A DNA stretch of 63,229 nt, filler included, from Planctomycetota bacterium (GTDB lineage Bacteria > Planctomycetota > Planctomycetia > JALXBF01), in NCBI GenBank assembly GCA_026991575.1. It is 6 parts of 6 records of this genome, joined end to end, with 100 filler letters (N's around TTAATTAATTAA, not from the genome) between each part and the next. Parts side by side here need not be neighbours in the genome. Positions count along the whole stretch, not along the records: positions 11,916 to 20,895 come from JALXBF010000012.1; 5 more parts are not named here. The stretch is one strand, 5' to 3'. Of the stretch, positions 487 to 20,895 are shown in pieces. The notes under the pieces were generated by a model. It worked only from the letters and a program-made list of their open reading frames with translations. It did no database searches and was not told where the DNA came from. A program made the position numbers and the translations under genes. Position 1 is the stretch's first letter. The number at the start of each line of letters is the position of its first letter.

Positions 487-1914
487 TTAGCCGAAGAGGA
501 GCTTCCAGCCCGTGAACGCACCGGCCGCCCCCAATGCCAGCGCGCTGGCCACAAGTCCCACGTCCCACAGCCGGGTGGGCCGCAGACCGGAGGGCACACG
601 ACGGAGCCGGAAATAGACGGCCACCGCGGCGATCATCGGAAGGGTTACGCTCTGTGCCAGCCCCCCCAACTGAACCATGAACACGGGCTTGCCCACGAGC
701 ACGTACAGCAGGAACGCAATCGCCGGGAACACGAAACAGAAGGCGCGGATAAGCATCAGCCGGTGACGGTGGTCCGAACGGGGATAGACGCCCATGACGT
801 ACAGGAAGTCGGTCGTTAGCCGCGCGTTTGCCGCCGAGGAGACGAATAGCGTTGAGAACAGCACGGCGATCGCGCCGACGACGAAAAGCACTCTGGCCCA
901 GAACTCCCCGAGCACCGGCGTGTACATGGCAATTAGCGAGGGTACTAGCCGGCTGCCTTCGCCGAGTCCCTGGCCGCCGAACACATCGAACAGCACACCT
1001 GCACCGAGAACGTAGAACGCCACGGTTGCCGTCGTGTAGATGACCATGCTGCCCCACGCATCCAGCCGCATCACCCTCAGCCACCCCCGCGCCCGCTCGA
1101 ACCACCCAGCGCTCCCATCTGGTGGCCCGGTCCAGCGTGCGTAGCCTTTCTCGATACACCAGTACGGATAGCTGATCAGTTCACTGGCTCCAACACCGGT
1201 GATGCCGAACATGGTCATCGCTTCACGCCAACTGTCAGAGGTGATCCGGAAGGTGAACCCTTCCAACAGGCGCGCGAAGGAAAACCCCTCATGGGCCCAC
1301 GGCAGCGCCACGACGCACGTAATGGTCATGAACGTAAAGAAGCACACCAGGACCAAGCTGACGTTCTGGACAATGCGGTAACTACCGGTCACCAGCAGGG
1401 CAATTGCCAGCACCGTTGTGACGACAGCCCAAGGCAGGGTCTGGGCCCGTGTCGCATCGTCCACAAACAGGCCGGACTGCTGCACGAACCCTCCCAGGCG
1501 CTCGGTTACCGCCGGGGTCAGCTGGCCGAACGCCTGGGCCACGCCGTCAACCATTGCACCGAGCTGGAAGAGCGTCATCAGCATCATGACCAGCCACCAG
1601 ATGACCAGCAGCTTGCCAACGGTCGGCACTGAGTGGAACGCTTCCAGCGTTGTCTTCCCACTGGCGATCGCGTACCGCCCGAGTTCGATTTGCACGAAGA
1701 CCTTGATGAAGCAGCTGAAGATGACGAGCCACAGCAGCACGAAACCGACTTTGGCGCCGAGGTCCGTGGTCGCGATCAGTTCGCCCGTGCCAACAATGGA
1801 TCCGGCCAGGATGATTCCCGGACCGATTTCTCGCAAGGCCTCCCGTAACGAGGCCGGGGGCTGACGTATCTCGGAGGGATCCAGCGCGTACGGATCGCGT
1901 AGCTCTTTGCTCAT
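487..1914 (-). CDS. Nramp/APC-superfamily transporter (MntH-like)
   Basis: 475 aa, about 11 TM segments, motif IGPGIILAGSIVGTGELIATT. Confidence 0.8.
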   Translation of the reverse strand: MSKELRDPYALDPSEIRQPPASLREALREIGPGIILAGSIVGTGELIATTDLGAKVGFVLLWLVIFSCFIKVFVQIELGRYAIASGKTTLEAFHSVPTVGKLLVIWWLVMMLMTLFQLGAMVDGVAQAFGQLTPAVTERLGGFVQQSGLFVDDATRAQTLPWAVVTTVLAIALLVTGSYRIVQNVSLVLVCFFTFMTITCVVALPWAHEGFSFARLLEGFTFRITSDSWREAMTMFGITGVGASELISYPYWCIEKGYARWTGPPDGSAGWFERARGWLRVMRLDAWGSMVIYTTATVAFYVLGAGVLFDVFGGQGLGEGSRLVPSLIAMYTPVLGEFWARVLFVVGAIAVLFSTLFVSSAANARLTTDFLYVMGVYPRSDHRHRLMLIRAFCFVFPAIAFLLYVLVGKPVFMVQLGGLAQSVTLPMIAAVAVYFRLRRVPSGLRPTRLWDVGLVASALALGAAGAFTGWKLLFG

Positions 1915-2124
1915 CCGGTATGCTCCCGTAGGCGTTGAGCCGCCCTCGCGCCGCTTCGCCCTGCCGCCCGACCGCTTCGCCTATCGCTGCGCCCCCCTAC
2001 CGTGGCCATAAGCTGCGGTAGCCGCACCGACCGCTGCCAGGGCAGAGCTCTGTTCAGCGATTCATGCCATGCAGGCGTTCGGTCAGCGACAGGCAAGCGT
2101 TTCAGCCAAGCCGCAGAGGCAGGG

Positions 2125-2700
2125 TTAGTGTAGCGGATTGAGCACCCGCAGACGAAGCAGCATCGGTAGCAGGAACAGATTGCCGGCCAGACCACCGAGC
2201 AAGGCAATCGAGATGAGGATACCGAAGTGGATGGTGGGGATGAAATTCGACAGGACCAACGCCGAAAAACCGACGACGATGGCCGTGTTGGCAAATAGCA
2301 GGGCAAGGCCAACCGAGTGATGGGTGCGTTCGATGGCCTCCTCAAAGCTGAGGCCGCCAAGACGCAGCAGTCGGAAGCGGTACACGTAGTGGATTGACGA
2401 ATCGACGGCCATACCAATCGACACGGCAGCTAGCATGGCGGTAGCCACGTTCAGCGGCAACCCAAACCATCCCATGGCGCCGACGACCATGGCAATCGGC
2501 GTGATGTTTGGCAACATGGCGAGCATGCCGAGCCGGATGCTACGGAATGCGGTGGTCAGCATGAGCAGACAGCCGATGGATGCAATGGCGAAGGTTCGCT
2601 TCTGGTCTTCCAGCAACCGGCCCACCAGGTGATAGAGCAGCACGTAATGGCCGGTGACGATCGGGTTGCCACGCAGACGATAGTACTGCTGCGTGTCGCG
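2125..2700 (-). CDS. MMPL/RND family transporter, C-terminal part (truncated by contig end)
   Basis: Motifs LPNITPI, SIGMAVDSSIHY and GFSALVLSNF; frame open to the contig edge at 2700. Confidence 0.85.
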   Translation of the reverse strand, partial: RDTQQYYRLRGNPIVTGHYVLLYHLVGRLLEDQKRTFAIASIGCLLMLTTAFRSIRLGMLAMLPNITPIAMVVGAMGWFGLPLNVATAMLAAVSIGMAVDSSIHYVYRFRLLRLGGLSFEEAIERTHHSVGLALLFANTAIVVGFSALVLSNFIPTIHFGILISIALLGGLAGNLFLLPMLLRLRVLNPLH

Positions 2701-2800
2701 NNNNNNNNNNNNNNNNNNNNNNNNNNNNNNNNNNNNNNNNNNNNTTAATTAATTAANNNNNNNNNNNNNNNNNNNNNNNNNNNNNNNNNNNNNNNNNNNN
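2701..2800. other. Artificial contig spacer (N run with TTAATTAATTAA)
   Basis: 100-nt N block with stops in all frames. Confidence 0.99.
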
Positions 2801-3101
2801 CCGCTGCCAGCCTCGGCAAGTGCTCGCAGATCTGGATACCCGGAACCTTTGTCTGGATCGGTCGGAACTCACCGCGGTACTGCTCGGGCGCCTCTGGCTT
2901 CATGTCAAACGTGTCCATGTGAGACGGGCCGCCCTGGAGGTAGACCAGGATGGCGCTCTCCGCCGTAGTGCCCGCCCGCCGCACCGCTCCGAGCGCCGTC
3001 AGCTGCAAGTATTGGCTCAGGCTCACGCCGAGTCCGGTGAGAGTCCCGACCTTCAGGAAGTCTCGTCGCGGAACACCGTCGCAGTACCAGTTCACAGCCA
3101 T
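2801..3101 (-). CDS. DUF1501 domain protein, N-terminal part (Tat-like leader)
   Basis: YCDGVPRRDFLKVG leader and ILVYLQGGPSHMDTFDMKP motif. Confidence 0.9.
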
Positions 3102-3150
3102 GGTCCGCTCCTTTGCCGTCGTTTCGGCGTCAGCCGGCGTGGTTACTGCC

Positions 3151-5889
3151 CTAGTGGTTCGTGCCGAACTCCTTCGTGTTGACCAGTGCCCAAAGTAGAT
3201 CTTCCAGGCCCCTGCGCAAGGAGTCCGCTTCGCGCAGATAGGCTATCGACCGGGTCATCTCCTGCTGATCTGGCTCGCGACTCAGCGTCCGCAGGAACGC
3301 GGATCGGACCAGCTTGCGCAACTGGCCGGTAGGCGGCTTCTTTGCCGCACGACGCTGTTGCTCCCGGCCGCTGTTTGCCGAGCCGCGATCGGAGAGAACC
3401 TGCAGCTTTTGGCGAATCTGAGCGATCCGCAGGCGGAGGAGTCGAGCTTGTCGGCTGCGCCGCTGGCGCTGGAGTTGCCGAACGCGCTTCTCCAGCAGCC
3501 GAACTGCCCGTTCCAGCCGCTGCCGTTCACGCTCGCTAGGCGGTCTGAGCCGGTCTTGGTTTGCGGCCGGAGCTGGCTGTTCGGCTCTGGCCACGGCCGC
3601 CGCCCAGCCGTCTGAGCGGCTGATCATGCCGAGCACCTCGCTGTCGTTCTGCAGCAGCAGCGTCTGCAACAGGTTTGGCTCATTGGAGCGTTCACAATCG
3701 CAATTGGTGCTCCGCGCCGGTTTGCCGAAGGCGGCAAGCAGGTACTGGGTGCCTCTGCTCCGGCGGAAGTCGACACCTTGGCCGCCGGCCAGTCCGATGG
3801 CTCGGTCGATCGGGTCATTGCGAAGCCTCTGCTCCAGTTCCGGGCCGGCCGTGGCAAGTTGCAGGGCGTCATAGAGGACTTCGGCCGGAAGCCGTCGGAT
3901 CAGGTAGCGGCTGAAGTTCCGTTGGTCGTGGACGTTGGTCTCATTGGGCTCGGCGCTAAGCTGGTAGGTTCTGCTGTTGAGGATCGTGCGGTGCAGCCAT
4001 TTCATGTCGTAGCCGCTACGGATGAAGCCGCGCACCAGGTAGTCCAGCAGCGGCTTGTTGCTCGGGGGGTTTCCGGCGCTGAGCTCGTCAGGTGGGTTGA
4101 CGATGCCGACACCGAAGTAGTGAGCCCAGACGCGATTGACGAACGCGGCAGCAAAGTACGGGTTATCTTCCTGCCGCAGCCACTCCATGAATGCTTCCCG
4201 CGGGTCGCTGTAGCGAGTCACGTCAACCACGTCACCGCCGAGCAGCTTCGGCTGCACAGCACGCTGGCGACCGCGACCACGCCCACGGCGGAGGAGGCTA
4301 CGGTTGACAAACACCTCACGCCACGGCACGGTCTTGCCCTGCCGCGCCAGCTGAAGGACGCGCCGCCGGAGCTGTCCGCCCCGTTGGCCTTCGAGCCCGA
4401 GTTCGCGTAGGAGAGCGCGCAGCTCAGGGCGACTCTCCGGCGCGTAGTTGTACGAGATCGGGGCAAACAGCGCGGCGAATTGTTCGAAGTCTCGCTTACT
4501 CCAGCGGTCGAATGGATGCTTGTGACACTGCGCGCACTCGATGCGCATGCCAAGAAATGCGTACGCGACCCAGATGGCACGGTCTGCCGGCTGCCGCATG
4601 TTGGTGCGCGCCCAGAAATGCGGCAGCGTGGGCCGCCGGCCGAATTCGGGCAGCTTCTCCGGCCGCAGGTAGCCGGTCATCTCCGCGCAGTACTCGCGGT
4701 AGCTCTGCCCGGGCTGCTTGCCCGTCGCCAGCACGATTCCTTCCACGATCTTGTCGTACGGCATGTTCGTTCTCACTCGGTGGTACATCCAATACCACCA
4801 CATCTCTGCCTGCTGGCGGCGGATGGCAGGCTCGCCCATCACGGCCGCGTTATTGCCCGTGATGTCGCACAGCTTCGTGGCCCACCAGGCTGCGTACTCG
4901 TCGCTGTCGAGCAACTCATCGATCTTGCGGGCCCGCTTGTCGGGCCTGGTATCGGAGAGGAATTCCAGGACCTCGGCCTCGGAGGGAAGCGTTCCGGTCA
5001 GATCGAGCCGCACGCGCCGGAGGAATTCAGCATCACTGCACAGCTTTGACGGCACAATGCCCAACTTGCGCAGCTTCGCAACCACCAGCCGGTCAATCTC
5101 CGTGGGGGTGGGCACGTCGGGATAACGGTCACCGGTGAGATCGGTAACCGGCAGCAGCACCGGCACCGGGGCAACGCCATTGTCGTAATAGACAACCACG
5201 TGCGTATCACCGCCACCGGTAGCCACCACGATCCCATCCTGGTTGACCTGTGCTACCGCGTCGTCCTTGACCTCGTAGCGGCACAGGGGCGTGACGTCCT
5301 CCACCGTCCCATCTGCCCAATGGGCAAGCACCCGGAGCTGGACCCGTTCGTTGACCCTCCCGAACACGATTTCGCTGGGTTCGACGGCAAGCCGGACCAA
5401 TTGGTGCGGCGGCTGCTTCGGCCCCGGTGCCCCGGCTTCGATCCAGCGCAGCAGCAGGTTATACTCCCAGCCGTCTACCTCCATGCGTTTGCCCCCCTTG
5501 TGGGGTTGGAGCATGGTTGGTTTTTCCAGGATCAGGCTTGCTTCGGGGTCATCGACACGCACGCGTTGATCCGACTCGCGCACCAGCGCACGGTAATCCG
5601 CTTGGAAGTCGTAGCCGAACAAGGACAGCCGAAATCCCCCCTGCCCCTGGAACGACCCGTGGCAGGCTCTGCCGTTACAACCGAGTCTGCCCAGCAGAGG
5701 CGCCACGTGGCGTTGGAAGTCGGGGACTTCGTCGGTGGTTGCATCCGCAAAGCGTGCGCTGACGGGGGCAAGGCCGCCCTCGGCGCCGCGACTGCCCGAG
5801 GCGCCGGCCCAGTAGACGGCAAGGCCCATGATGAGAGGAAGAACTCGCCTGCTCACGCTACCGCTCCTCCCGAGAGTTCTTGTCTGCAC
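3151..5889 (-). CDS. DUF1549/DUF1553 (PSCyt2/PSD1) protein with Ig-like domain
   Basis: Signal peptide, GCNGRACHG, FLRRVRLDLTGTLP, IECAQCHKHPFD and NPYFAAAFVNRVWAHYFGVGIV motifs. Confidence 0.92.
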   Translation of the reverse strand: MQTRTLGRSGSVSRRVLPLIMGLAVYWAGASGSRGAEGGLAPVSARFADATTDEVPDFQRHVAPLLGRLGCNGRACHGSFQGQGGFRLSLFGYDFQADYRALVRESDQRVRVDDPEASLILEKPTMLQPHKGGKRMEVDGWEYNLLLRWIEAGAPGPKQPPHQLVRLAVEPSEIVFGRVNERVQLRVLAHWADGTVEDVTPLCRYEVKDDAVAQVNQDGIVVATGGGDTHVVVYYDNGVAPVPVLLPVTDLTGDRYPDVPTPTEIDRLVVAKLRKLGIVPSKLCSDAEFLRRVRLDLTGTLPSEAEVLEFLSDTRPDKRARKIDELLDSDEYAAWWATKLCDITGNNAAVMGEPAIRRQQAEMWWYWMYHRVRTNMPYDKIVEGIVLATGKQPGQSYREYCAEMTGYLRPEKLPEFGRRPTLPHFWARTNMRQPADRAIWVAYAFLGMRIECAQCHKHPFDRWSKRDFEQFAALFAPISYNYAPESRPELRALLRELGLEGQRGGQLRRRVLQLARQGKTVPWREVFVNRSLLRRGRGRGRQRAVQPKLLGGDVVDVTRYSDPREAFMEWLRQEDNPYFAAAFVNRVWAHYFGVGIVNPPDELSAGNPPSNKPLLDYLVRGFIRSGYDMKWLHRTILNSRTYQLSAEPNETNVHDQRNFSRYLIRRLPAEVLYDALQLATAGPELEQRLRNDPIDRAIGLAGGQGVDFRRSRGTQYLLAAFGKPARSTNCDCERSNEPNLLQTLLLQNDSEVLGMISRSDGWAAAVARAEQPAPAANQDRLRPPSERERQRLERAVRLLEKRVRQLQRQRRSRQARLLRLRIAQIRQKLQVLSDRGSANSGREQQRRAAKKPPTGQLRKLVRSAFLRTLSREPDQQEMTRSIAYLREADSLRRGLEDLLWALVNTKEFGTNH

Positions 5890-11915: not shown

Positions 11916-11917
11916 AT

Positions 11918-13483
11918 ATGATCTTCGCCGACCCCCCCTACAACATCGGTTACAGCTACGACATCTACAACGACGCACGGCCCGACGAGGAGTACCTCAC
12001 CTGGCTCAGGCAGTGGATCAGCCGGTGCACGGCGCTGCTGGCCGAACATGGCTCATTCTGGATCGCGATCGGTGACGAGTACGCCGCCGAGGTCAAGTGG
12101 ATCGCTACCCGCGAAATCGGCCTCGTGCTGCGCAACTGGGTAGTCTGGTACTACACCTTCGGAGTGCACTGTCAGAGCAAGTTCACCCGATCGCACACCC
12201 ACCTTCTGCACCTGGTCAAGAACCCCGACCGGGCCATCTTCCACGCAGACGCCGTACGCGTTCCATCCGCCCGGCGGCTCATCTACCACGACCTCCGCGC
12301 CGACCCAAAAGGCCGGGTCCCTGACAATACCTGGATCCTCCGGCCACAACAGATTCCACACGCGTTCCGACCCGATGAAGACACCTGGTACGTACCGAGG
12401 GTTGCAGGCACCTTTTCCGAACGTGCGCGGTTCCACGGTTGCCAGCTTCCCGAACGGCTCGTTGCCCGAGCCATCCTGGCTTGTACGGACGAAGGCCACG
12501 TCGTGCTGGATCCGTTCGCCGGAAGCGGTACCACGCTTGCCGTCGCCAAGAAACTGGGCCGCCGTTGGGTCGGCATCGAACTGTCGGCCAACTACGCAGC
12601 CCATGCGGAGCGCCGGGTCCGGGCGGTTCGCCGCGGAGACCCGCTGGAAGGTCCCGAGGAGGCAGTCATGCCCGTCCAGCGACGCCGCTGCGCCGTATCG
12701 AGACGGCCGCTGCTGGAGGCAAAATGCCGTGTGCGTGAGATGCTCGGCGAACTGGTGCGCGATAGCAGCGTGGAACGTTGCCTGACCGACCCGGTGCATA
12801 ATGCGGTGTTCCTCGAGCGCTGCCGCCACGCAATGCTGCCCGGTCGTCCGTTCGATTGGAACAGCGTCCTGCTGAGTGAGGCCATGGGGCGAGCACTGCC
12901 GCTAGAGGAGCTGCTGGACGACCTGGCGGACGTGCCGGCAATGGCCGCCGACCTTGCTGCCGGCCGGCTGCTGGCTCAAGGTTACCCCGACGTGCGGACG
13001 CTGCTGTGTGAACCGCGAGTGAGTTGTCTCTTTGATGAACTGGCCCAGGAGCTGTGCCCGGGCACCGCTGCGGCACGCCTGCGCCGCTGCCTTCTCAGCG
13101 CGCTGCGGCTGACGCAGCTGGCCGGGAAGATCACCGCGCGCAGCGATCCAGGGGAGCTTGCGCTGGAGCCACTTGCTTCAGCGCGGCGTGCGCCGGTTGC
13201 AGCCGGCATCGTGGCTATCGGGTCGCGCAACAAGCGACGAGATGCCGTCGTCTGGCACCTGGCATTGACCAGGGATCTTGCACGCGCTGTGCAGTGGTGC
13301 CGTGAGTCGCTGGCAACGCTGCAGGCGATCGCACCGGTGCCCGGTGAAATCGTCGTCGGATGGCAGCCGCTTGCCGGTGAACCCGCGGATCAGCGATGGG
13401 CTCGCCTGTGGACACTCCTGGAGCAGACACGTCCCTGGTTGAGTGCGCTCTGGCGCGAATCTAACCAGGCAGACACCCACTGA
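11918..13483 (+). CDS. N4/N6 DNA methyltransferase (beta class) with long C-terminal extension; probably 5'-truncated
   Basis: DPPY (motif IV) precedes DPFAGSGTT (motif I); ~270 aa extra C-terminal region; ORF begins at the contig edge. Confidence 0.9.
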   Translation: MIFADPPYNIGYSYDIYNDARPDEEYLTWLRQWISRCTALLAEHGSFWIAIGDEYAAEVKWIATREIGLVLRNWVVWYYTFGVHCQSKFTRSHTHLLHLVKNPDRAIFHADAVRVPSARRLIYHDLRADPKGRVPDNTWILRPQQIPHAFRPDEDTWYVPRVAGTFSERARFHGCQLPERLVARAILACTDEGHVVLDPFAGSGTTLAVAKKLGRRWVGIELSANYAAHAERRVRAVRRGDPLEGPEEAVMPVQRRRCAVSRRPLLEAKCRVREMLGELVRDSSVERCLTDPVHNAVFLERCRHAMLPGRPFDWNSVLLSEAMGRALPLEELLDDLADVPAMAADLAAGRLLAQGYPDVRTLLCEPRVSCLFDELAQELCPGTAAARLRRCLLSALRLTQLAGKITARSDPGELALEPLASARRAPVAAGIVAIGSRNKRRDAVVWHLALTRDLARAVQWCRESLATLQAIAPVPGEIVVGWQPLAGEPADQRWARLWTLLEQTRPWLSALWRESNQADTH

Positions 13484-13623
13484 GGGCAGCCAGGCAGTCA
13501 GGTATCGACGGGCCTTTTACCAGGCCACTGGTGGAGCATCGGCCGGGGTTGGGCTCTGTTTGCGGCAGCACGACGAGTCCGAAAACCGCCCGCTCGGTGA
13601 CTGACCGGTTTGGTTGTGGTTTG

Positions 13624-14706
13624 TCAGCGACTGGACGAGACGTGTTCGGGACGGCCGGATTGAGCCGAGCGGTACGCGGCATCCAGCAACTCGACGCTGC
13701 GGCATGCGACCGTGCCTGGTGACCAGTTACGCTCGGTCCTGCCCAGGATTAGATCGATGAAGTTGTGTACGGGGCCGGAGCATTCGTAGGCGCCGGCGTC
13801 CGGCGCAACGGGCATCGTATGGGAGCCGTCCGCCCGATGGAGCTCGGCCCGTGCCCGTTCGCAGTCGACCAGCAGCATGCCTTCGGTACCGTAGACCCGG
13901 ATGTCAACCTGGAATCGCTTCTGGTTCTCCGGGACGCCGGCCGAGCCGGAGACGGTACCAAGGGCACCGCCGCCGAACTTGACGGTCATCGCATCGTGCA
14001 GGTCGACGCGGGCCCCAGGGGCAGTCATCCAGCAGAAGACCTCTTCGGGACGTAGGTCTGTCAGCAGGAAGAGCAGGGCAGTGGCGTGCGTTAGCTGGGC
14101 ATGACCGTAGCCACCACCGGCCACGGCAGGGTCGGACCAGGTGCGCGGATCGGGTTTGAATAAGGCCGTTCCAGCAGCTCCCCCGTCGGCGTCGGAGCGG
14201 GTGCGTGGCCGTCCGGTGAGCATCGTGCGGATCGGTGACGCCATGTGGCACAGGACGTATTCGACGGTTCCGACACCGCGAGTGCGCATCTGCTCCCACG
14301 CGAACTGGATGAACGGCTTGTAGTGCCAGCCATAGGGCACAAGCAGGTGGCGCTGCTTCTGGGCAGCTAGCCGCACGAGTTCGCGGGCATGCTCGGCCCG
14401 AAGTGCCATCGGCTTTTCCACCATGACATGGATGCCACGCTCTAGGGCCGCGCGCGCATGCTCGTAGTGCAGTGCGTGGGGTGAGGCGACGATCACCCCG
14501 TCCAGCTCAACGCGGTCGAGTAGCTCCAGGTAGTCCTCGGTCGCGAACCGGAACCCGAACCGCTCCGCAACTGCGCGCAGCTCCGCCTTGCCCAGACGGC
14601 ACACCCCAACGAGCTCGACGTCCGAGCGAGCGGCCAGAATCGGCAGGTGGTTTGCGGTGGCCCACCAACCGGCACCGATCAGTCCGATCCTCGCTTTACC
14701 CGCCAT
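13624..14706 (-). CDS. Gfo/Idh/MocA family oxidoreductase
   Basis: RIGLIGAG, HVMVEKPM motifs; GAGGAGG RBS before ATG at 14706. Confidence 0.9.
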   Translation of the reverse strand: MAGKARIGLIGAGWWATANHLPILAARSDVELVGVCRLGKAELRAVAERFGFRFATEDYLELLDRVELDGVIVASPHALHYEHARAALERGIHVMVEKPMALRAEHARELVRLAAQKQRHLLVPYGWHYKPFIQFAWEQMRTRGVGTVEYVLCHMASPIRTMLTGRPRTRSDADGGAAGTALFKPDPRTWSDPAVAGGGYGHAQLTHATALLFLLTDLRPEEVFCWMTAPGARVDLHDAMTVKFGGGALGTVSGSAGVPENQKRFQVDIRVYGTEGMLLVDCERARAELHRADGSHTMPVAPDAGAYECSGPVHNFIDLILGRTERNWSPGTVACRSVELLDAAYRSAQSGRPEHVSSSR

Positions 14707-14714
14707 CGGCCTCC

Positions 14715-15422
14715 TCAGATCAACCGGGTCCGCACCAGCGTTACGGCAGCCAGCGCGGCCGTTTCGGTACGTAACGTCGTCGGGCCAAGCGATGCTGGCC
14801 ACCAGCCCGCTGCCAGGGCCGCCGTCAGTTCCTCGTCTGCCCATCCCCCCTCAGGCCCGACCGCCAGCCACGCTTCATCGTACGCCATCTCCCGGACCAG
14901 CTCCTGCAGCGGGCGGCCCTCCGGATGGCATACGAACCGGGCAGTGGTCGCCGGGGCCGGCGCGGCGCAGGCCTCCGACCAAGCGATCGGCTCGCGCACC
15001 GCCATGAGGCGATTGCGGCCACACTGTTTCGATGCCTCGATGACCCAGCGCCTGAAGCGTTCGATGCGGACCGCGCGGCTGTGCCGGTCGGCATAGCGGG
15101 TGACGATCAGCTGAAGCGTGTGCACGCCCAGTTCCGTGGCCTTCTCCACCAGCCAGCGCTGCCGATCGCCCTGCGGGGCAGGCACGAACAGCCACACCGT
15201 GCCACGTAGCTCACGGTTCACCGGGCAGCGCTGCTCGACACGGAGCCGGGCACGCCGTCGCTCTAGGGCCACGACACGACAGCGTGCTTCCAGGCCCCTG
15301 CCGTCAAAGACCGTCACCACGTCGCCCACCGCCACACGGCTCACCCGCAGATGATGGGCCTCGTCGGCGGTGAGCTCGAACTCGTCTTCGGTCAGGTCAC
15401 CGTGGAAGAAACGCTGCGACAT
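14715..15422 (-). CDS. rsmE: 16S rRNA m3U1498 methyltransferase
   Basis: EKATELGV, EASKQCGR, VGPEGG and SLGPTTLRTETAA motifs. Confidence 0.93.
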   Translation of the reverse strand: MSQRFFHGDLTEDEFELTADEAHHLRVSRVAVGDVVTVFDGRGLEARCRVVALERRRARLRVEQRCPVNRELRGTVWLFVPAPQGDRQRWLVEKATELGVHTLQLIVTRYADRHSRAVRIERFRRWVIEASKQCGRNRLMAVREPIAWSEACAAPAPATTARFVCHPEGRPLQELVREMAYDEAWLAVGPEGGWADEELTAALAAGWWPASLGPTTLRTETAALAAVTLVRTRLI

Positions 15423-15559
15423 GGCCGGTCGCTCACGGAGGTTGCTCCACCCCAGGGGGGCAGCGGTGCTTGCCAGGATCGTCCGGGGCGATCCTAAGAA
15501 TGCTATGTGTTGTGCAAGCTCCCGCCGCCGGTGACGCGTCCAGTCAGACTTGGAGCCCG

Positions 15560-17008
15560 ATGGCTGACGAGCCGGTTGCCCAAGCAGTGCGCCCCCGACG
15601 TTCCCAGCTGGTTGCCCATGCTGAACGCGCCATGGGCGCGACCATTCTCTATCTCGCACTGCCGGTCCTGAGCGAGCAACTGCTGACGTCGTTTGTCGGG
15701 CTGGTGGATACGTTCATCGCGGGCAGATTGAGTCGAGCGGCGACGATCGCCGTCGGCCTGGCCAGCTACGTTAACTGGTTCGGCATGCTGTTGAGCAACC
15801 TGGTCACGGCTGGCACGCTCGCGCTGGTGGCACGACACTGGGGGGCCGCCGAGGAGGCCCAGGCAAACCGCGTTCTCAACCATTCGCTGCCGCTGGCCGC
15901 CGTGGCGGGAATCCTGCTGACGGTAACCTTCTACACGATGGCCCCCTGGTTCGCGTGGCTGCAGGGCTTGGAGGGCGACGCATACGAGATCACCGTGCAG
16001 TACCTAAGAATCACGTCATTCGCGCTACCGTTCACGTCCACGCTCCTGGTTGCCGTTGCCGCACTGCGCGGCGCCGGTGACATGAAGACGCCCCTGGCGG
16101 TCAATGCACTGGTTAACCTGATCAACGTTGTGGCCAGTTGGTTGCTGACCTTCGGGCTGGCCGGGTACGTCCCGGGCATCGGCGTGGCAGGGATCGCGGT
16201 GGGCACGCTGGCGGCCCGGATCAGCGGCTGGACCGTGCTGACGGTGCTGATGAGTTCCGGGGTGCTGCGATTGCGGGTGCTCTGGAGCGGGTGGCGGTGG
16301 GAGAGTCGCCTGGTACGGACAGTGCTTCGCATCGGCTTGCCCGCAGCGGGCGATGGCATCGTGATGTGGGCCGGCCAGTTCGCGTTCTTGACCGTGATCG
16401 GCCACCTGGCGGAAGGAGCACTTGGAGAAGCGTACTTCGCGGCCCACGTCGTTGGCATCCGGGTTGAATCGCTTACCTACTTGCCTGCGGTCGCCTGGGG
16501 CGCAGCCGGTGCCACCCTGGTCGGGCAATTCCTCGGGGCAGGCAGCGTGCATCGTGCCCGACAGGCCGGTAACCTGGCCGCACTGCAGGGGGCCACCCTC
16601 GGGACATTCTGTGGCATCGGTTACTTCCTGTTCGCCGAACCTCTGTACCGGCTTATGCATCGCGACCCTCTGGTCTGGGAAGTCGGTATACCGGCATTCC
16701 GGATGCTGGCCTGGTTCCAGCCGTTGCTCGTGGCTGCGATCGTCTACATCGGTTGCCTCCGCGGCGGCGGCCAAACGAAGGTTCCGCTGGCAATCACAAC
16801 GACCGGAGTGCTCGGCCTGCGGCTGCCGCTGGCTTACACCGGGGGAGTGCTCCTGGGGCGCGGCCTCGTGGGAGCATGGGCTGGTATGTGTGCCGACATC
16901 ACGGTCCGCGCAGCAATCGCCTGGTGGGCGTTTCAACGCCAGCGCTGGCAGCGACTGACCGAAGCGGAAGGAGCAGAGCTGACCGGGGGACCAGAGCCGG
17001 TCGAGTAG
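15560..17008 (+). CDS. MATE family efflux transporter
   Basis: About 12 TMs; LRGAGDMKTPL, RIGLP and LVGQFLGAG motifs. Confidence 0.92.
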   Translation: MADEPVAQAVRPRRSQLVAHAERAMGATILYLALPVLSEQLLTSFVGLVDTFIAGRLSRAATIAVGLASYVNWFGMLLSNLVTAGTLALVARHWGAAEEAQANRVLNHSLPLAAVAGILLTVTFYTMAPWFAWLQGLEGDAYEITVQYLRITSFALPFTSTLLVAVAALRGAGDMKTPLAVNALVNLINVVASWLLTFGLAGYVPGIGVAGIAVGTLAARISGWTVLTVLMSSGVLRLRVLWSGWRWESRLVRTVLRIGLPAAGDGIVMWAGQFAFLTVIGHLAEGALGEAYFAAHVVGIRVESLTYLPAVAWGAAGATLVGQFLGAGSVHRARQAGNLAALQGATLGTFCGIGYFLFAEPLYRLMHRDPLVWEVGIPAFRMLAWFQPLLVAAIVYIGCLRGGGQTKVPLAITTTGVLGLRLPLAYTGGVLLGRGLVGAWAGMCADITVRAAIAWWAFQRQRWQRLTEAEGAELTGGPEPVE

Positions 17009-17329
17009 CACTCCCGCCGGAACTGCAGCTCATTTGCCCACGCTCGGTCGGTTCTGACGGCCGATCGCCCCGCGATCGCCGCGTGGTGCCGTCAGGCTGC
17101 GGCTCTGCGGTAGCAAGCTGCAGCCTGCGCCGCCAGCAGCCGGCCAGGCTCGTCTTGAGCGGACCGGGCATGCTCGCGGCGCATCACGACGCCTGCGGTC
17201 GGTCTCGCCTAGAGGGAATTGTCAGACGCAGTGACGGGCAGCCGCGGTCGGCCGCAGCCAGGCTTGCGGCTCGTGCGCGTAGGCCTGAGTGGGCCGCGGG
17301 CGGCCCAGAACGGTCGCAGACCGGCGCGC

Positions 17330-17393
17330 AAAAAAGGAGCCAAGGTGACACCACTTCGTGCTGCCCGCCGTGCCACACGTCACCTTGGCTCCT
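17330..17393 (-). terminator. Intrinsic terminator-like hairpin for a minus-strand transcript
   Basis: Perfect 15-bp inverted repeat AGGAGCCAAGGTGAC (17335-17349) / GTCACCTTGGCTCCT (17379-17393), 29-nt loop, then T6 on the minus strand. Confidence 0.75.
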
Positions 17394-17518
17394 CCGGGCG
17401 CGACTCACTCAACGCAGAGGGGCGGGGAAGGCAGGCGGTCCGTCCGGTCGTGCGCGTCCTCAGGCTCGCGGTGGTGGGTCGCCTGTCTGCGGTCGGCTTC
17501 CGCCAACCCTCCCACGCC
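17330..17518 (-). ncRNA. Candidate sigma54-dependent small RNA (~190 nt)
   Basis: Bounded by a consensus sigma54 promoter and a terminator; no convincing ORF; internal hairpin GGTTGGC-GGAA-GCCGACC. Confidence 0.5.
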
Positions 17519-17528
17519 GTGATGTGTG

Positions 17529-17545
17529 TGCAAGCTGCGTGCCAA
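17529..17545 (-). promoter_or_regulatory. sigma54 (-24/-12) promoter
   Basis: Minus strand reads TTGGCACG-CAGC-TTGCA, an exact match to TGGCACG-N4-TTGC. Confidence 0.8.
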
Positions 17546-17729
17546 GAGCCTCCAAGCCGCGCGGACCAAGGCGGCCGCGGGATTAAAAGTCGTTAATGGA
17601 GCTTGCCTTTGCGGCGTTCCCCAACTTCGCGCAGCCTGCGGCCCGTTGGAATGGCTTGGTCCGCCGAGCGCCCGGTTCCGCGCGCCCTGCGGCACACTCT
17701 GTCCCACTCTGACCCACGTTGGCCCTAGC

Positions 17730-17744
17730 TGCAACAGCGTTGCA
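17730..17744. promoter_or_regulatory. Candidate enhancer (bEBP) binding palindrome
   Basis: TGCAAC-AGC-GTTGCA perfect dyad ~185 bp upstream of the -24 element. Confidence 0.4.
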
Positions 17745-18139
17745 TGAGCCGGGTGCCACGAAGCCGTGCAAACTGACGGCGAGGCGGACGGCTCGAGAGC
17801 AAGGAGGCGGCGGCAGCCGGGAGGGAGTTTCCCCAGGGGCCGGCCCGACGCCCACTGCGCTTGCGCGGATTCGGCGGGCCGGTGAGGGGGACTTCCCGGG
17901 CGCCCGCTTCATCGAATAGCCGCCACGAAGGCGTCTTGTCCGCCGCTTCTTCCTTTACCCGATGCCGTGCGCGTTCCGCTGCGTCCGGCGTTACGGCCCG
18001 CCATTGCCCCCCGGGCGATCCGGACGCTGCTCTCGCTGCCCACGCCACGTCGCGCGTGTCATAGAGCCCCTAGAGCGCCCGACGCCGCGGACGGGGTCCG
18101 CGGCGTCGGCGGGCCTGCAAATGGCAAGGTGAGAAAAAA

Positions 18140-18156
18140 CTGGTATTGCCCGTGCT
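18140..18156 (+). promoter_or_regulatory. sigma54-like promoter
   Basis: CTGGTAT-TGCCC-GTGCT with correct GG-N10-GC spacing, ~25 nt before an ATG with RBS. Confidence 0.45.
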
Positions 18157-18181
18157 ACCCATCAACAGAGCGGGAGGGAGC

Positions 18182-18355
18182 ATGAAGCCCCCCTCCCGTG
18201 AGTTCACGGCAGCTGGCGAGTTGAACGGTGCTCCGATGCCGGCGAAACCAGCGGCCAACGTAGCCGAAACCAACCCGGCAGCGCAGGCGAGACCATCGCC
18301 CAAACGTAGGCGAAGCGAACCCGCGCCGAGGGGTTCGCGTCGGAGCAGCGGTTGA
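18182..18355 (+). CDS. Putative 57-aa small basic, low-complexity protein
   Basis: GGGAGGGAG immediately before ATG; preceded by a sigma54-like promoter; no recognisable domain. Confidence 0.35.
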   Translation: MKPPSREFTAAGELNGAPMPAKPAANVAETNPAAQARPSPKRRRSEPAPRGSRRSSG

Positions 18356-18446
18356 ACAACGCAACTGGCACCGTTGATGCCGGTTGCGACCCAAACGCGC
18401 TCGCTGCAACAGGCCAGCGCGCGATACCTGTCCACCGGGGACACCA

Positions 18447-19280
18447 CTAGAACCAGCCGGTTGCCCTGCTTGCGGCCTGCTGTCGGCGTTCGGATTCGCG
18501 CCGCTCCTGCCGGTGGTGTTCCTTCTTGATGTTCCTTCTTGACCCGTGCTGAGCGGCAAGCTGTGCAAGCGCGCGATCCGTCAGCTGCATGATGAGAAAC
18601 CGCTCGCCGAGTTGCCGATCCAGCGCCCGCGAGAACTCCGGACGCGTTCTCCGATCCCGGACCAAGCCACTTGTGGTCCCCCGGCGGTGAGTTTCAACAA
18701 TTGCGGGCGCAACCGATCGATGAGTTCCGCTTCCAACGCAGCAGACGTGGCGCGGCCATCTGTTGCCCTCTGGCGATCTCGGCGCGCCACCTTCCCCAGC
18801 TAGTCGGCCAGCGCACGTGCTTTGTCGTCATCCGCGGCGGCAGCGTCCTGATGTGTGCTACCGTCGCCTGCCCGATCAGCAAGCTGCCGTGTGGAGAGAC
18901 CGCTTGCTGACCGCAGTCAGCAGCCCGGCGTCAGCGTGGATGCGCCGCTAGCGGACGGTGCCGGTCGCTAGTCCGGGCGGATCGGGTACAGACATCGACG
19001 CGTCTTCGCGGTCCCGGCAGGCCGTGGCATGGTCCGTCGGCACTCGACAGCACGGCAGATGTGACAGCGTGGAAGGGAGCGGCTGTTCGCTGGCGAGCCA
19101 CGGTCAGCGGCAATCCTGTCCGTCGATCAGGTAGACGCGGTGATAGGTTAGCCGCTCAGTCAAGAAGCGGCCGGTGATCCTCATGGCTTACTGCGGCTGA
19201 AACTCGCCGGGGCAAGCTTTGGCCAGCCATGTCCGGGAACTTCTCCGGAGTCACGGTGTCAAAGAAGCGTACGCTAGCTT
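18447..19280 (-). pseudogene. Possible decayed gene remnants
   Basis: Protein-like fragments in shifting frames (ALEAELIDRLRPQLLKL; FSRALDRQLGERFLIMQLTDRALAQLAA), internal stops, and a 13-bp tandem duplication at 18517-18542. Confidence 0.3.
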
Positions 19281-19909
19281 AGCCGGATCGTTCCAGACCT
19301 AGGCGGAAGGCGGCCGGCGTACGACGACTTCTCAGGGCAAGTCCGCTGCTCTTGCGGCGGGCCTCTTCGGCCCTAACCGGCGCCACCCCGACTACGGCAA
19401 CCAGAGATCCAACGGACGAATCTCCGACGGGTGAAGTGCCATGCGTGATGGCTGGCCCGGAAAATGGCGAGCCATTCGGACACACTCGGTGGCGGCAAGC
19501 CGCTCGCACCGGGCGGGGGGGCGACTGCTACGTTCGCCCGCGCTCTGGGGCGTGCTTGCCGAGGCCTTCACCCAGCCCAGAATCCGGCATACGTTGGTAA
19601 TGTCTCCTCGGTCCGTCGCCCGGCTTGGTCAGCCAGGCAATCGTGCCGCGGGGACACGGCAAAAGGTGCAGTTGTGGTATGGGGCAACGTGTCGTGGGGC
19701 AGCGGCCACACTTCGACGTGATGGCTGGTGCCCGGGGAGGCGCAAGACCCTATGAGCCGTTTCGTTCGACGATGGCACGCGTAGCCCGCTTGGGGTATGC
19801 GCGATGGGCCGGTCTGACTCGCGCGCACGCAGCGCCGCGAGTGTCCAAGTGGGCTTCTCCACGGGAACGCTCTGCGCATGGGTGAACGGCTAGATAAGGA
19901 GACATTAGC

Positions 19910-20644
19910 GTGCCAGGAACGACATACATGCCAAAGAACGTCTCGCGCGGCGCCCGACGCCGCCGGCTAAACAGGCTGGTTGCCGACTGCAGAAACCAGC
20001 AACTACCCAACGCTACGCGGAACCACGCTGCGGAACAGATTACGGTCGTGCTCCAACGAATTGCTTGGCGTGTGAACATCGCCGACTTCAACGGTTCATT
20101 CGACAGCCATACATTGGAGGACGTCGTACAAACTACGATCTGCAAACTTCTTGACGAGACAAAGTACTCGACCAACGACCGTAGCGGATCGCTGCTAGGG
20201 TGGGCCTGGACCGTCATCCGGCACGAGTTCTTCGACCGGCTTCGCAGACGCGAGCAGGTGCGTCCTGGCCCCGACGACGAAGATGCTCTCGAAGAACTCG
20301 TTCCCGATTCGAGAGAAACCTGGGGAAACTGGTTCCAACAACCTTTCCCCGACCCGGACCTGAAGAAACTCGAAGCCATCCAGCCGGCACGTGACCGGCT
20401 CATCGTCGTGGCCTACATGGGACTGCACCGGAAGGTGCCTCAAATGGTCTGGCACCGATGGTGCCAGCAGGCGGGGGTAACGAACTTCCCGCCGCCACAG
20501 ATCGCCGGATTCGGGCCGGAGCGTGGGATGGCCAAGACGATTGCCAGCGCACTGGGAATTCGGCAGGATGTCGTCCACCAGGTGGTCTGTCGCAAGGGAG
20601 GTGTTTTGCGTGAGCTGGCAGCGATCCGAGACCTGAGGTACTGA
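19910..20644 (+). CDS. Divergent ECF-like sigma factor
   Basis: EDVVQTTICKLL...SLLGWAWTVIRHEFFDRLRR (region 2-like); C-terminal HTH KTIASALGIRQDVVHQVV; AAGGAG RBS. Confidence 0.7.
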   Translation: MPGTTYMPKNVSRGARRRRLNRLVADCRNQQLPNATRNHAAEQITVVLQRIAWRVNIADFNGSFDSHTLEDVVQTTICKLLDETKYSTNDRSGSLLGWAWTVIRHEFFDRLRRREQVRPGPDDEDALEELVPDSRETWGNWFQQPFPDPDLKKLEAIQPARDRLIVVAYMGLHRKVPQMVWHRWCQQAGVTNFPPPQIAGFGPERGMAKTIASALGIRQDVVHQVVCRKGGVLRELAAIRDLRY

Positions 20645-20706
20645 GCCAGTGCGGTCGCAGCGATGAAGGACGCGCTGCGTGGCACAAGTTATTAGTGGGA
20701 AAGCCG

Positions 20707-20747
20707 ACCGGGGTCCCAGCCCGACTGCCGTCGGGCTGGGCTCCGGT
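20707..20747 (+). terminator. Strong hairpin downstream of the sigma-like gene
   Basis: CCCAGCCCGAC-TGCC-GTCGGGCTGGG 11-bp perfect stem, extendable by 7 bp past a bulge; weak U tract. Confidence 0.5.
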
Positions 20748-20895
20748 TCTGCTGAGTCAAGCCTACATGACCGACTTCCCGCACATCCTCACAACAAACC
20801 GGTAGGATCCATGTCAGAGTTCGATGGCGTTGAACGTGAGTCGGTCGGGGTCTGTGAACAGCGTAACTGGCGGCAGCATGTCGGCTGCCGGCCCC

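Follow-up and report, generated by a model that had tools for sequence, protein, structure and literature searches.

Qrr1-5 of Vibrio are LuxO/sigma-54-dependent small RNAs (sRNAs), and in gamma-proteobacteria CrcZ/CrcY (CbrB/sigma-54) and GlmY (GlrR/sigma-54) act by protein sequestration or mimicry via repeated motifs. The C-rich or anti-Shine-Dalgarno sRNAs include RsaE/RoxS, the UCCC loops of the RNAIII type, and the alpha-proteobacterial CCUCCUCCC RNAs. In full-text literature searches, the titles and the beginnings of abstracts mentioned no regulatory RNA of Planctomycetota with a sigma-54 promoter, and the studies of sigma-54 regulons that were found concerned, as far as these titles and opening lines go, other phyla.

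The locus described here comes from a planctomycete MAG (G000; 4.96 Mb, 191 contigs, 97.8% complete). As in the case of Qrr1-5, the sRNA gene stands alone, has a -24/-12 promoter and an intrinsic terminator of its own, and contains a presumed seed that is conserved and unpaired. In contrast to Qrr1-5, the planctomycete RNA has no sequence or structure match (0 in Rfam), is present in a single copy with no paralogue in G000 detected by blastn or the covariance model, has no adjacent activator gene in this genome, and measures about 189 nt, its 5' domain being variable; moreover, no match to Hfq was found in G000. With CrcZ/CrcY and GlmY it would share the principle of a non-coding regulator driven by sigma-54 and an enhancer-binding protein, but it contains no conserved repeated motif and again no Rfam match. 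Like the RsaE/RoxS group, it has C-rich stretches that are conserved and unpaired and that, without Hfq, could cover G-rich ribosome-binding sites, whereas homology is absent, the promoter is of another type, and any targets are putative.

We consider it very probable that the locus is a real sigma-54-dependent non-coding RNA gene. Comparison with relatives shows, on sequence grounds, the gene with its promoter, boundaries and terminator, as well as its non-coding nature, while its transcription, activator, seed and targets are what we infer. To the reading as a whole, i.e., an independent, sigma-54-driven and terminated gene whose RNA most likely base-pairs in trans via a conserved core, we assign a probability of roughly 0.6. 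The boundaries are sharp, with promoter, +1 and terminator all fixed by comparison with relatives, which is unusual for an sRNA gene.

Architecture of the locus

The stretch of DNA that was analysed, referred to as the window (63,229 nt), consists of contigs of one MAG strung together with N spacers. The sRNA locus lies on contig C12 (8,980 bp, window positions 11916-20895) and comprises the following features, all in window coordinates.

15470..17008, plus strand: MatE-family efflux gene (Pfam MatE, E = 7.3e-44), convergent with the sRNA; context, outside the RNA
17673..17698, minus strand: weak candidate enhancer (UAS) patch AGTGTGCCG...CGGAACCG, which precedes the -24 element by about 130-155 nt; putative
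17545-17529, minus strand: sigma-54 promoter TTGGCACGCAGCTTGCA, TTGGCAC-GCAGC-TTGCA (-24 GG / -12 GC), exact match to the TGGCAC-N5-TTGCW consensus
17518..17330, minus strand: predicted 189-nt non-coding transcript, from G17518 to the last T of the T-run
17508-17491, minus strand: 5' hairpin GGUUGGC-GGAA-GCCGACC, 7 pairs (one of them G.U), part of the variable 5' domain
17469..17478, minus strand: 10-nt word CCCACCACCG, common to the sister-genus genome within an otherwise diverged 5' domain
17430-17416, minus strand: C-rich stretch CCTTCCCCGCCCCTC, as read in the sequence
17389..17433, minus strand: conserved core, C-rich UGCCUUCC(C/U) followed by the 36-nt invariant block CGCCCCUCUGCGUUGAGUGAGUCGCGCCCGGAGGAG; candidate seed region
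17330..17393, minus strand: intrinsic terminator with a 15-bp perfect stem (arms 17379-17393 and 17335-17349), a structured apical extension and T6
17358..17376, minus strand: 19-nt invariant apical block GUGGCACGGCGGGCAGCAC inside the terminator hairpin, the same in both genomes

The initial annotation had proposed a stand-alone, unannotated sigma-54-dependent regulatory RNA of planctomycetes, and this proposal holds with regard to the promoter, the +1 boundary, the terminator and the lack of a common ORF. The exact promoter that it placed at 17545-17529 of the minus strand is there, with the consensus TGGCAC-N5-TTGCA, and the start that it predicted near 17518 falls on G17518 if position -12 is assigned to the C of the -12 GC, the very position at which similarity to a contig of run X2 begins. 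A predicted RNA of about 190 nt with the GGTTGGC-GGAA-GCCGACC hairpin and the C-rich stretch was also found as described (17508-17491 and 17430-17416, respectively), and so was the 15-bp perfect stem followed by T6, whose arms of 15 nt each are 100% complementary and 29 nt apart, with T6 at 17335-17330 ending the transcript at 17330.

Exact TGGCAC-N5-TTGCW sites occur 24 times in G000, compared to 4.0 expected from composition and to 5.5 +/- 4.6 in scrambled-hexamer controls (n = 200) for the sigma-54 word. Most of the 24 sites are thus likely genuine sigma-54 promoters; the chance expectation of the exact word is about 0.05 per 63-kb window. At 20 of the 24 sites, an ORF of at least 100 aa starts upstream or no more than 500 nt downstream and reads past the site. 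The sRNA promoter belongs to the four sites without such an ORF, and two of the other three are located near contig ends. The genome encodes one rpoN (PF04552, 208 bits) and contains 26 matches to the PF00158 sigma-54 interaction domain, 16 of them above 130 bits, corresponding to about 16 strong enhancer-binding proteins. Immediately next to rpoN, and convergent with it, is one of the two CsrA genes (C36:12289-12444 on the plus strand, 12850-13326 on the minus strand).

The candidate UAS patch comprises a 9-mer at -153 in G000 and -144 in the sister-genus genome, together with an 8-mer at -135 and -137, respectively, without clear dyad symmetry. By a rough estimate, sharing of the 9-mer has a chance expectation of about 0.05. 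The patch is missing upstream of the other 23 sigma-54 sites of G000, no enhancer motif common to the sRNA promoter and the other sigma-54 promoters of this genome was found, and no enhancer-binding protein gene is linked to the sRNA in G000.

The predicted RNA folds as a whole with an MFE of -95.5 kcal/mol (z = -2.29 compared to shuffles), and its counterpart in the sister genus is likewise more stable than shuffled sequences (z = -2.4). The CUCUGCGUUGAGUGAGUCGCGCC portion of the core is mostly unpaired in the MFE folds of both RNAs. The word CCCACCACCG, at +41 in G000 and +36 in the relative, is located in a hairpin loop in the former fold and is largely unpaired in the latter. The MFE fold of the G000 RNA pairs the C-rich stretch with the G-rich 5' end, which makes the accessibility of this stretch uncertain.

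The sRNA gene is situated in a region of about 2.9 kb (17009-19900) that contains no ORF longer than 140 aa and holds, besides this gene, a repeat element. On the same strand there is no ORF of at least 100 aa 3' of the sRNA in G000, and the small ORFs tested 5' of it (17.6-19.9 kb) and across 17009-19900 gave no Pfam match.

Conservation in the sister genus and in vent metagenomes

When the locus was compared with 41 genomes by blastn, matches were obtained only in G000 itself and in G001, a Planctomycetota MAG from a sister genus and the sole family-level relative in the comparison. Between the two contigs, blastn aligned only MatE (66%, 1286 nt) and the 3' domain of the sRNA (86%, 123 nt), which means that the non-coding element is much better kept than the adjacent gene; the MatE proteins are 62% identical, with 66% identity at the DNA level. 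Apart from the sRNA 3' domain, the 17009-19900 stretch has no counterpart in G001 in this blastn comparison. MatE is the sole neighbour of the sRNA that is retained and it is convergent in both genomes, while the remaining neighbours in G001 have their best G000 matches on other contigs.

The promoter in G001 is TTGGCACGCAGGTTGCA, in which 16 of the 17 bases are kept, and the differences among the promoter versions of G000, G001 and the X2 contig are confined to the spacer and the W position. The following ~65 nt in G001 (~85 nt in G000) are largely unalignable with the exception of CCCACCACCG, and the 5' hairpin could not be aligned in G001. The 3' part aligns over 108 columns with 92% identity. 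Within it, the conserved core is the same in both genomes save one C/U, and contigs from runs X2, X5, X6 and X10 show no differences there. The terminator of G001 ends in T7. Loop bases beside the invariant apical block vary, namely at 17354 and 17378 in the contigs and by a 2-nt indel in G001. Two of the 40 predicted pairs of the whole RNA keep their pairing via double changes in G001, both in the terminator hairpin (A-U to G-C in the stem and U-G to A-U in the apical extension), and a one-sided C-G to U-G change occurs in the stem. With two full-length sequences plus contig fragments, the covariation signal comprises 2-3 pairs.

The runs that bear this DNA carry the label of hydrothermal vent metagenomes, and none of the 11 is recorded as RNA. 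The 557-nt contig of run X2 shows 2 differences from G000 across 17330-17518, and neither of its flanks resembles the G000 contig. On the RNA strand its upstream flank reads CGCTTGGCACGCTAGTTGCTCTATAAGCGG, which provides a different consensus sigma-54 promoter in the same register, TTGGCACGCTAGTTGCT, placed 10 nt before the first matching base. The similarity between the two contigs thus extends from the predicted +1 to the final T of the terminator. The X5 contig matches 17395-17547, ending 2 nt beyond TTGGCAC, and contains small compensating indels between the -12 element and +1. In the X6 contig the match ends at 17330 and the stem of the 5' hairpin is the same, with the loop GGCA in place of GGAA. 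The few differences in the 3' half of the contigs fall in the apical loop (17354, 17378) or correspond to the G001-type stem change (17388). In both X2 and X6, the DNA 3' of the T-run did not align to G000 at the 80% setting. These contigs show selection on the predicted promoter-to-terminator unit; being DNA assemblies, they inform on such selection and are silent on expression. The comparison with relatives by blastn suggested in the initial annotation thereby showed that G001 and the vent contigs retain the promoter, the body of the transcript and the terminator.

No Rfam 15 family matched at the gathering threshold anywhere in the window; the four sub-threshold matches include MH_s15 as the best one near the site, at the noise level of 18.8 bits compared to a threshold of 123. 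A covariance model of the sRNA 3' domain, run over 151 genomes of the class, matched only G000 and G001. The scan of genome contigs with a 23-mer returned 1 locus, which is that of G001, and no further homologue, while a 19-mer scan of genome contigs returned 36 loci, of which the covariance model scored only G001 (131 bits vs at most 24.7 for the others). In metagenome contigs, a 20-mer scan yielded 2 loci, the G001 contig and L005, the latter having the word alone in common. The predicted RNA is a new, well-delimited sRNA family, so far from one planctomycete family at hydrothermal vents, and the locus could seed a new RNA family model.

Proposed mode of action and competing explanations

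We propose that the locus is an independent 189-nt RNA gene (17518-17330, minus strand) with an intrinsic terminator of its own that would end the transcript. RNA polymerase carrying sigma-54 would transcribe the gene once it is activated by an enhancer-binding protein of G000. The RNA would be built of three parts. Its structured 5' domain evolves fast, its C-rich core is conserved and for the most part unpaired, and its terminator hairpin is long and has an apical block that is invariant. The core, made up of CCCACCACCG and then UGCCUUCCYCGCCCCUCUGCGUUGAGUGAGUCGCGCCC, would pair with mRNAs in trans, probably at G-rich ribosome-binding regions and without the help of Hfq. Base-pairing through the core is a tentative part of this model, which we rate somewhat short of an even chance. 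The C-rich, anti-Shine-Dalgarno idea of the initial annotation is plausible, as the C-rich stretch and the adjacent block are the conserved parts of the RNA.

The same annotation had also considered the GGA trinucleotides of the RNA as CsrA-binding motifs, which would make it a CsrA-titrating RNA similar to CsrB/RsmY/RsmZ that sequesters one of the CsrA proteins. G000 has two genes for homologues of CsrA (93 and 83 bits), the conserved core ends with GGAGGAG, and the RNA does contain the seven GGA that had been counted, one of them in a hairpin loop, a number that was rightly called modestly above chance. However, shuffled sequences of 189 nt contain 3.98 +/- 1.71 GGA, so that the excess is not significant (P(>=7) = 0.07), and the G001 RNA has 2 compared to 2.67 expected (P = 0.79). 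The two of the seven that are kept in G001 are those of GGAGGAG, which are spaced by 3 nt where the terminator stem begins, and the loop GGAA is changed to GGCA in the X6 variant. We therefore abandon the CsrA reading as quite improbable. With the sponge failing, and with a C-rich core that is conserved and largely unpaired in a genome with no Hfq found, base-pairing in trans is favoured. Binding of some other protein through the 19-nt apical block, e.g., as a decoy for a transcription factor or sigma-54, could explain why the block is invariant while neighbouring loop bases vary, since an ordinary terminator loop needs no such conservation, and the block contains the -24 word UGGCAC. Yet the block is largely base-paired in the consensus fold, UGGCAC may have arisen by chance (about 0.06 per 189 nt by a rough estimate), and no precedent is known to us; we regard such a role as unlikely.

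The constant convergent position of MatE, together with the dispersal of the other G001 neighbours over different G000 contigs, could also point to a local element tied to this gene, acting for instance by read-through antisense transcription or transcriptional interference upon sigma-54 activation. This is unlikely, because a strong terminator precedes the MatE stop codon by 320 nt (G000) or ~155 nt (G001), the intervening spacer lacks conservation, the DNA beyond the T-run in X2 and X6 is unalignable to G000 at the 80% setting, and the high conservation resides in the body of the RNA, not in the flank that faces MatE. That the transcript is a small-protein mRNA or a dual-function RNA seems extremely unlikely. 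A 36-codon GTG ORF at +4 to +114 fits inside the G000 transcript, G001 has a 33-codon TTG ORF, and GGAGGAG precedes a GTG at 17383 by 6 nt. Against this, no candidate ORF has an in-frame start codon in the other genome, the frame of the GTG that follows GGAGGAG meets no stop codon as it crosses the terminator and is shifted in G001 by the 2-nt indel, the 36-nt invariant block has stops in all three frames, and Pfam found nothing in ORFs overlapping the sRNA. The 33-codon TTG ORF that had been reported inside the G000 transcript proved to be an ORF of 31 aa at 17555-17460 that starts upstream of the promoter. Finally, since 4-5 of the 24 exact sigma-54 words of G000 are expected by chance, a promoter-like word might merely lie beside a stray terminator without forming a functional unit; we consider this very unlikely, given that promoter, spacing, body and terminator persist in another genus as well as in contigs whose flanks are unrelated, and that conservation of the sRNA far exceeds that of the neighbouring protein-coding gene.

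The search for targets in G000 yielded nothing that stands out statistically. Complementary words of at least 11 nt to the seed, counted outside C12, numbered 88 vs 75, 75 and 88 for control seeds, and a placement resembling a ribosome-binding site was found for 8/88 vs 3/75, 8/75 and 5/88 in these controls and for 7-17 of 125-275 in 12 shuffles. RNAduplex was uninformative in this GC-rich genome, where everything scored about -50 kcal/mol. The most notable lead is a pair of complementary sites in the same cytochrome c oxidase operon of G000: the 11-nt AACGCAGAGGG, which can pair with the invariant CCUCUGCGUUGAG, stops 8 nt short of the coxB start codon, and the 13-nt CUCAACGCAGAGG, which can pair with the same segment, stops 13 nt short of that of coxA. 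The G001 contig with the sRNA copy (18.5 kb, with the sRNA promoter as its only sigma-54-like site) carries a possible activator:

L006 (G001:C194) 1683-5219: NtrC-type activator (REC-AAA-HTH_8), convergent with a protoglobin-domain histidine kinase, ~4 kb from the sRNA copy

From the presence of this kinase and activator near the G001 promoter and from the coxB and coxA pairing, it could be reasoned that a sigma-54 circuit which senses oxygen or redox state has the sRNA as its output and in this way shuts the terminal oxidase down. We give this idea little credence, as the pairing sites are not kept at the sole cox operon found in G001 (its CoxA shares 53-56% identity with that of G000 and may be a paralogue), the orthologues of the activator and the kinase are unlinked in G000, being on separate contigs (C115 and C120), and the matches are not above those of the controls. 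The locus nevertheless offers a concrete start for finding the targets and the activating signal.

Other sigma-54 sites and a dispersed repeat

A further exact sigma-54 promoter of G000 is followed by a short predicted RNA and a terminator:

G000:C138:23592, plus strand (locus L013, ~2592-2730): sigma-54 promoter TTGGCACGGTTTTTGCA, then ~125 nt and a terminator with the loop CCCCCUCC

This locus is flanked by a comEA-like HHH gene plus uvrB on one side and by a DUF1559 gene on the other. It resembles the sRNA gene on C12 in having an exact promoter, a short C-rich RNA and a terminator in the same genome, but differs in locus, length and sequence, and the two have no upstream motif in common. 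We consider both as sigma-54 sRNA candidates of G000. The presence of two such genes suggests that riboregulators may often be driven by sigma-54 and its enhancer-binding proteins in a phylum that is rich in such activators and lacks a detectable Hfq.

At C104:42784 on the plus strand, an exact sigma-54 promoter, TTGGCACGCTAGTTGCA, has no ORF of at least 100 aa starting within 500 nt downstream, and may give rise to a further non-coding transcript or a long leader. The sigma-54 word at C35:7325 on the plus strand, near a contig end, is followed by ~200 nt of G/T-rich low complexity with GGTGGTGGG repeats, and these repeats are complementary to CCCACCACC. We did not retain this site as a promoter, because an antisense ORF spans it and the word may be there by chance.

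The repeat element in the neighbourhood of the sRNA gene is ~295 nt long (window 18079-18371, plus strand) and dispersed in the genome, with 65 blastn matches in G000 at 72-95% identity, the long ones being 77-87% identical. It was not found in six relatives. Copies are often located near contig ends. The element opens with a 14-bp perfect palindrome (CCGACGCCGCGGAC/GTCCGCGGCGTCGG) and looks like a MITE or REP-type element.
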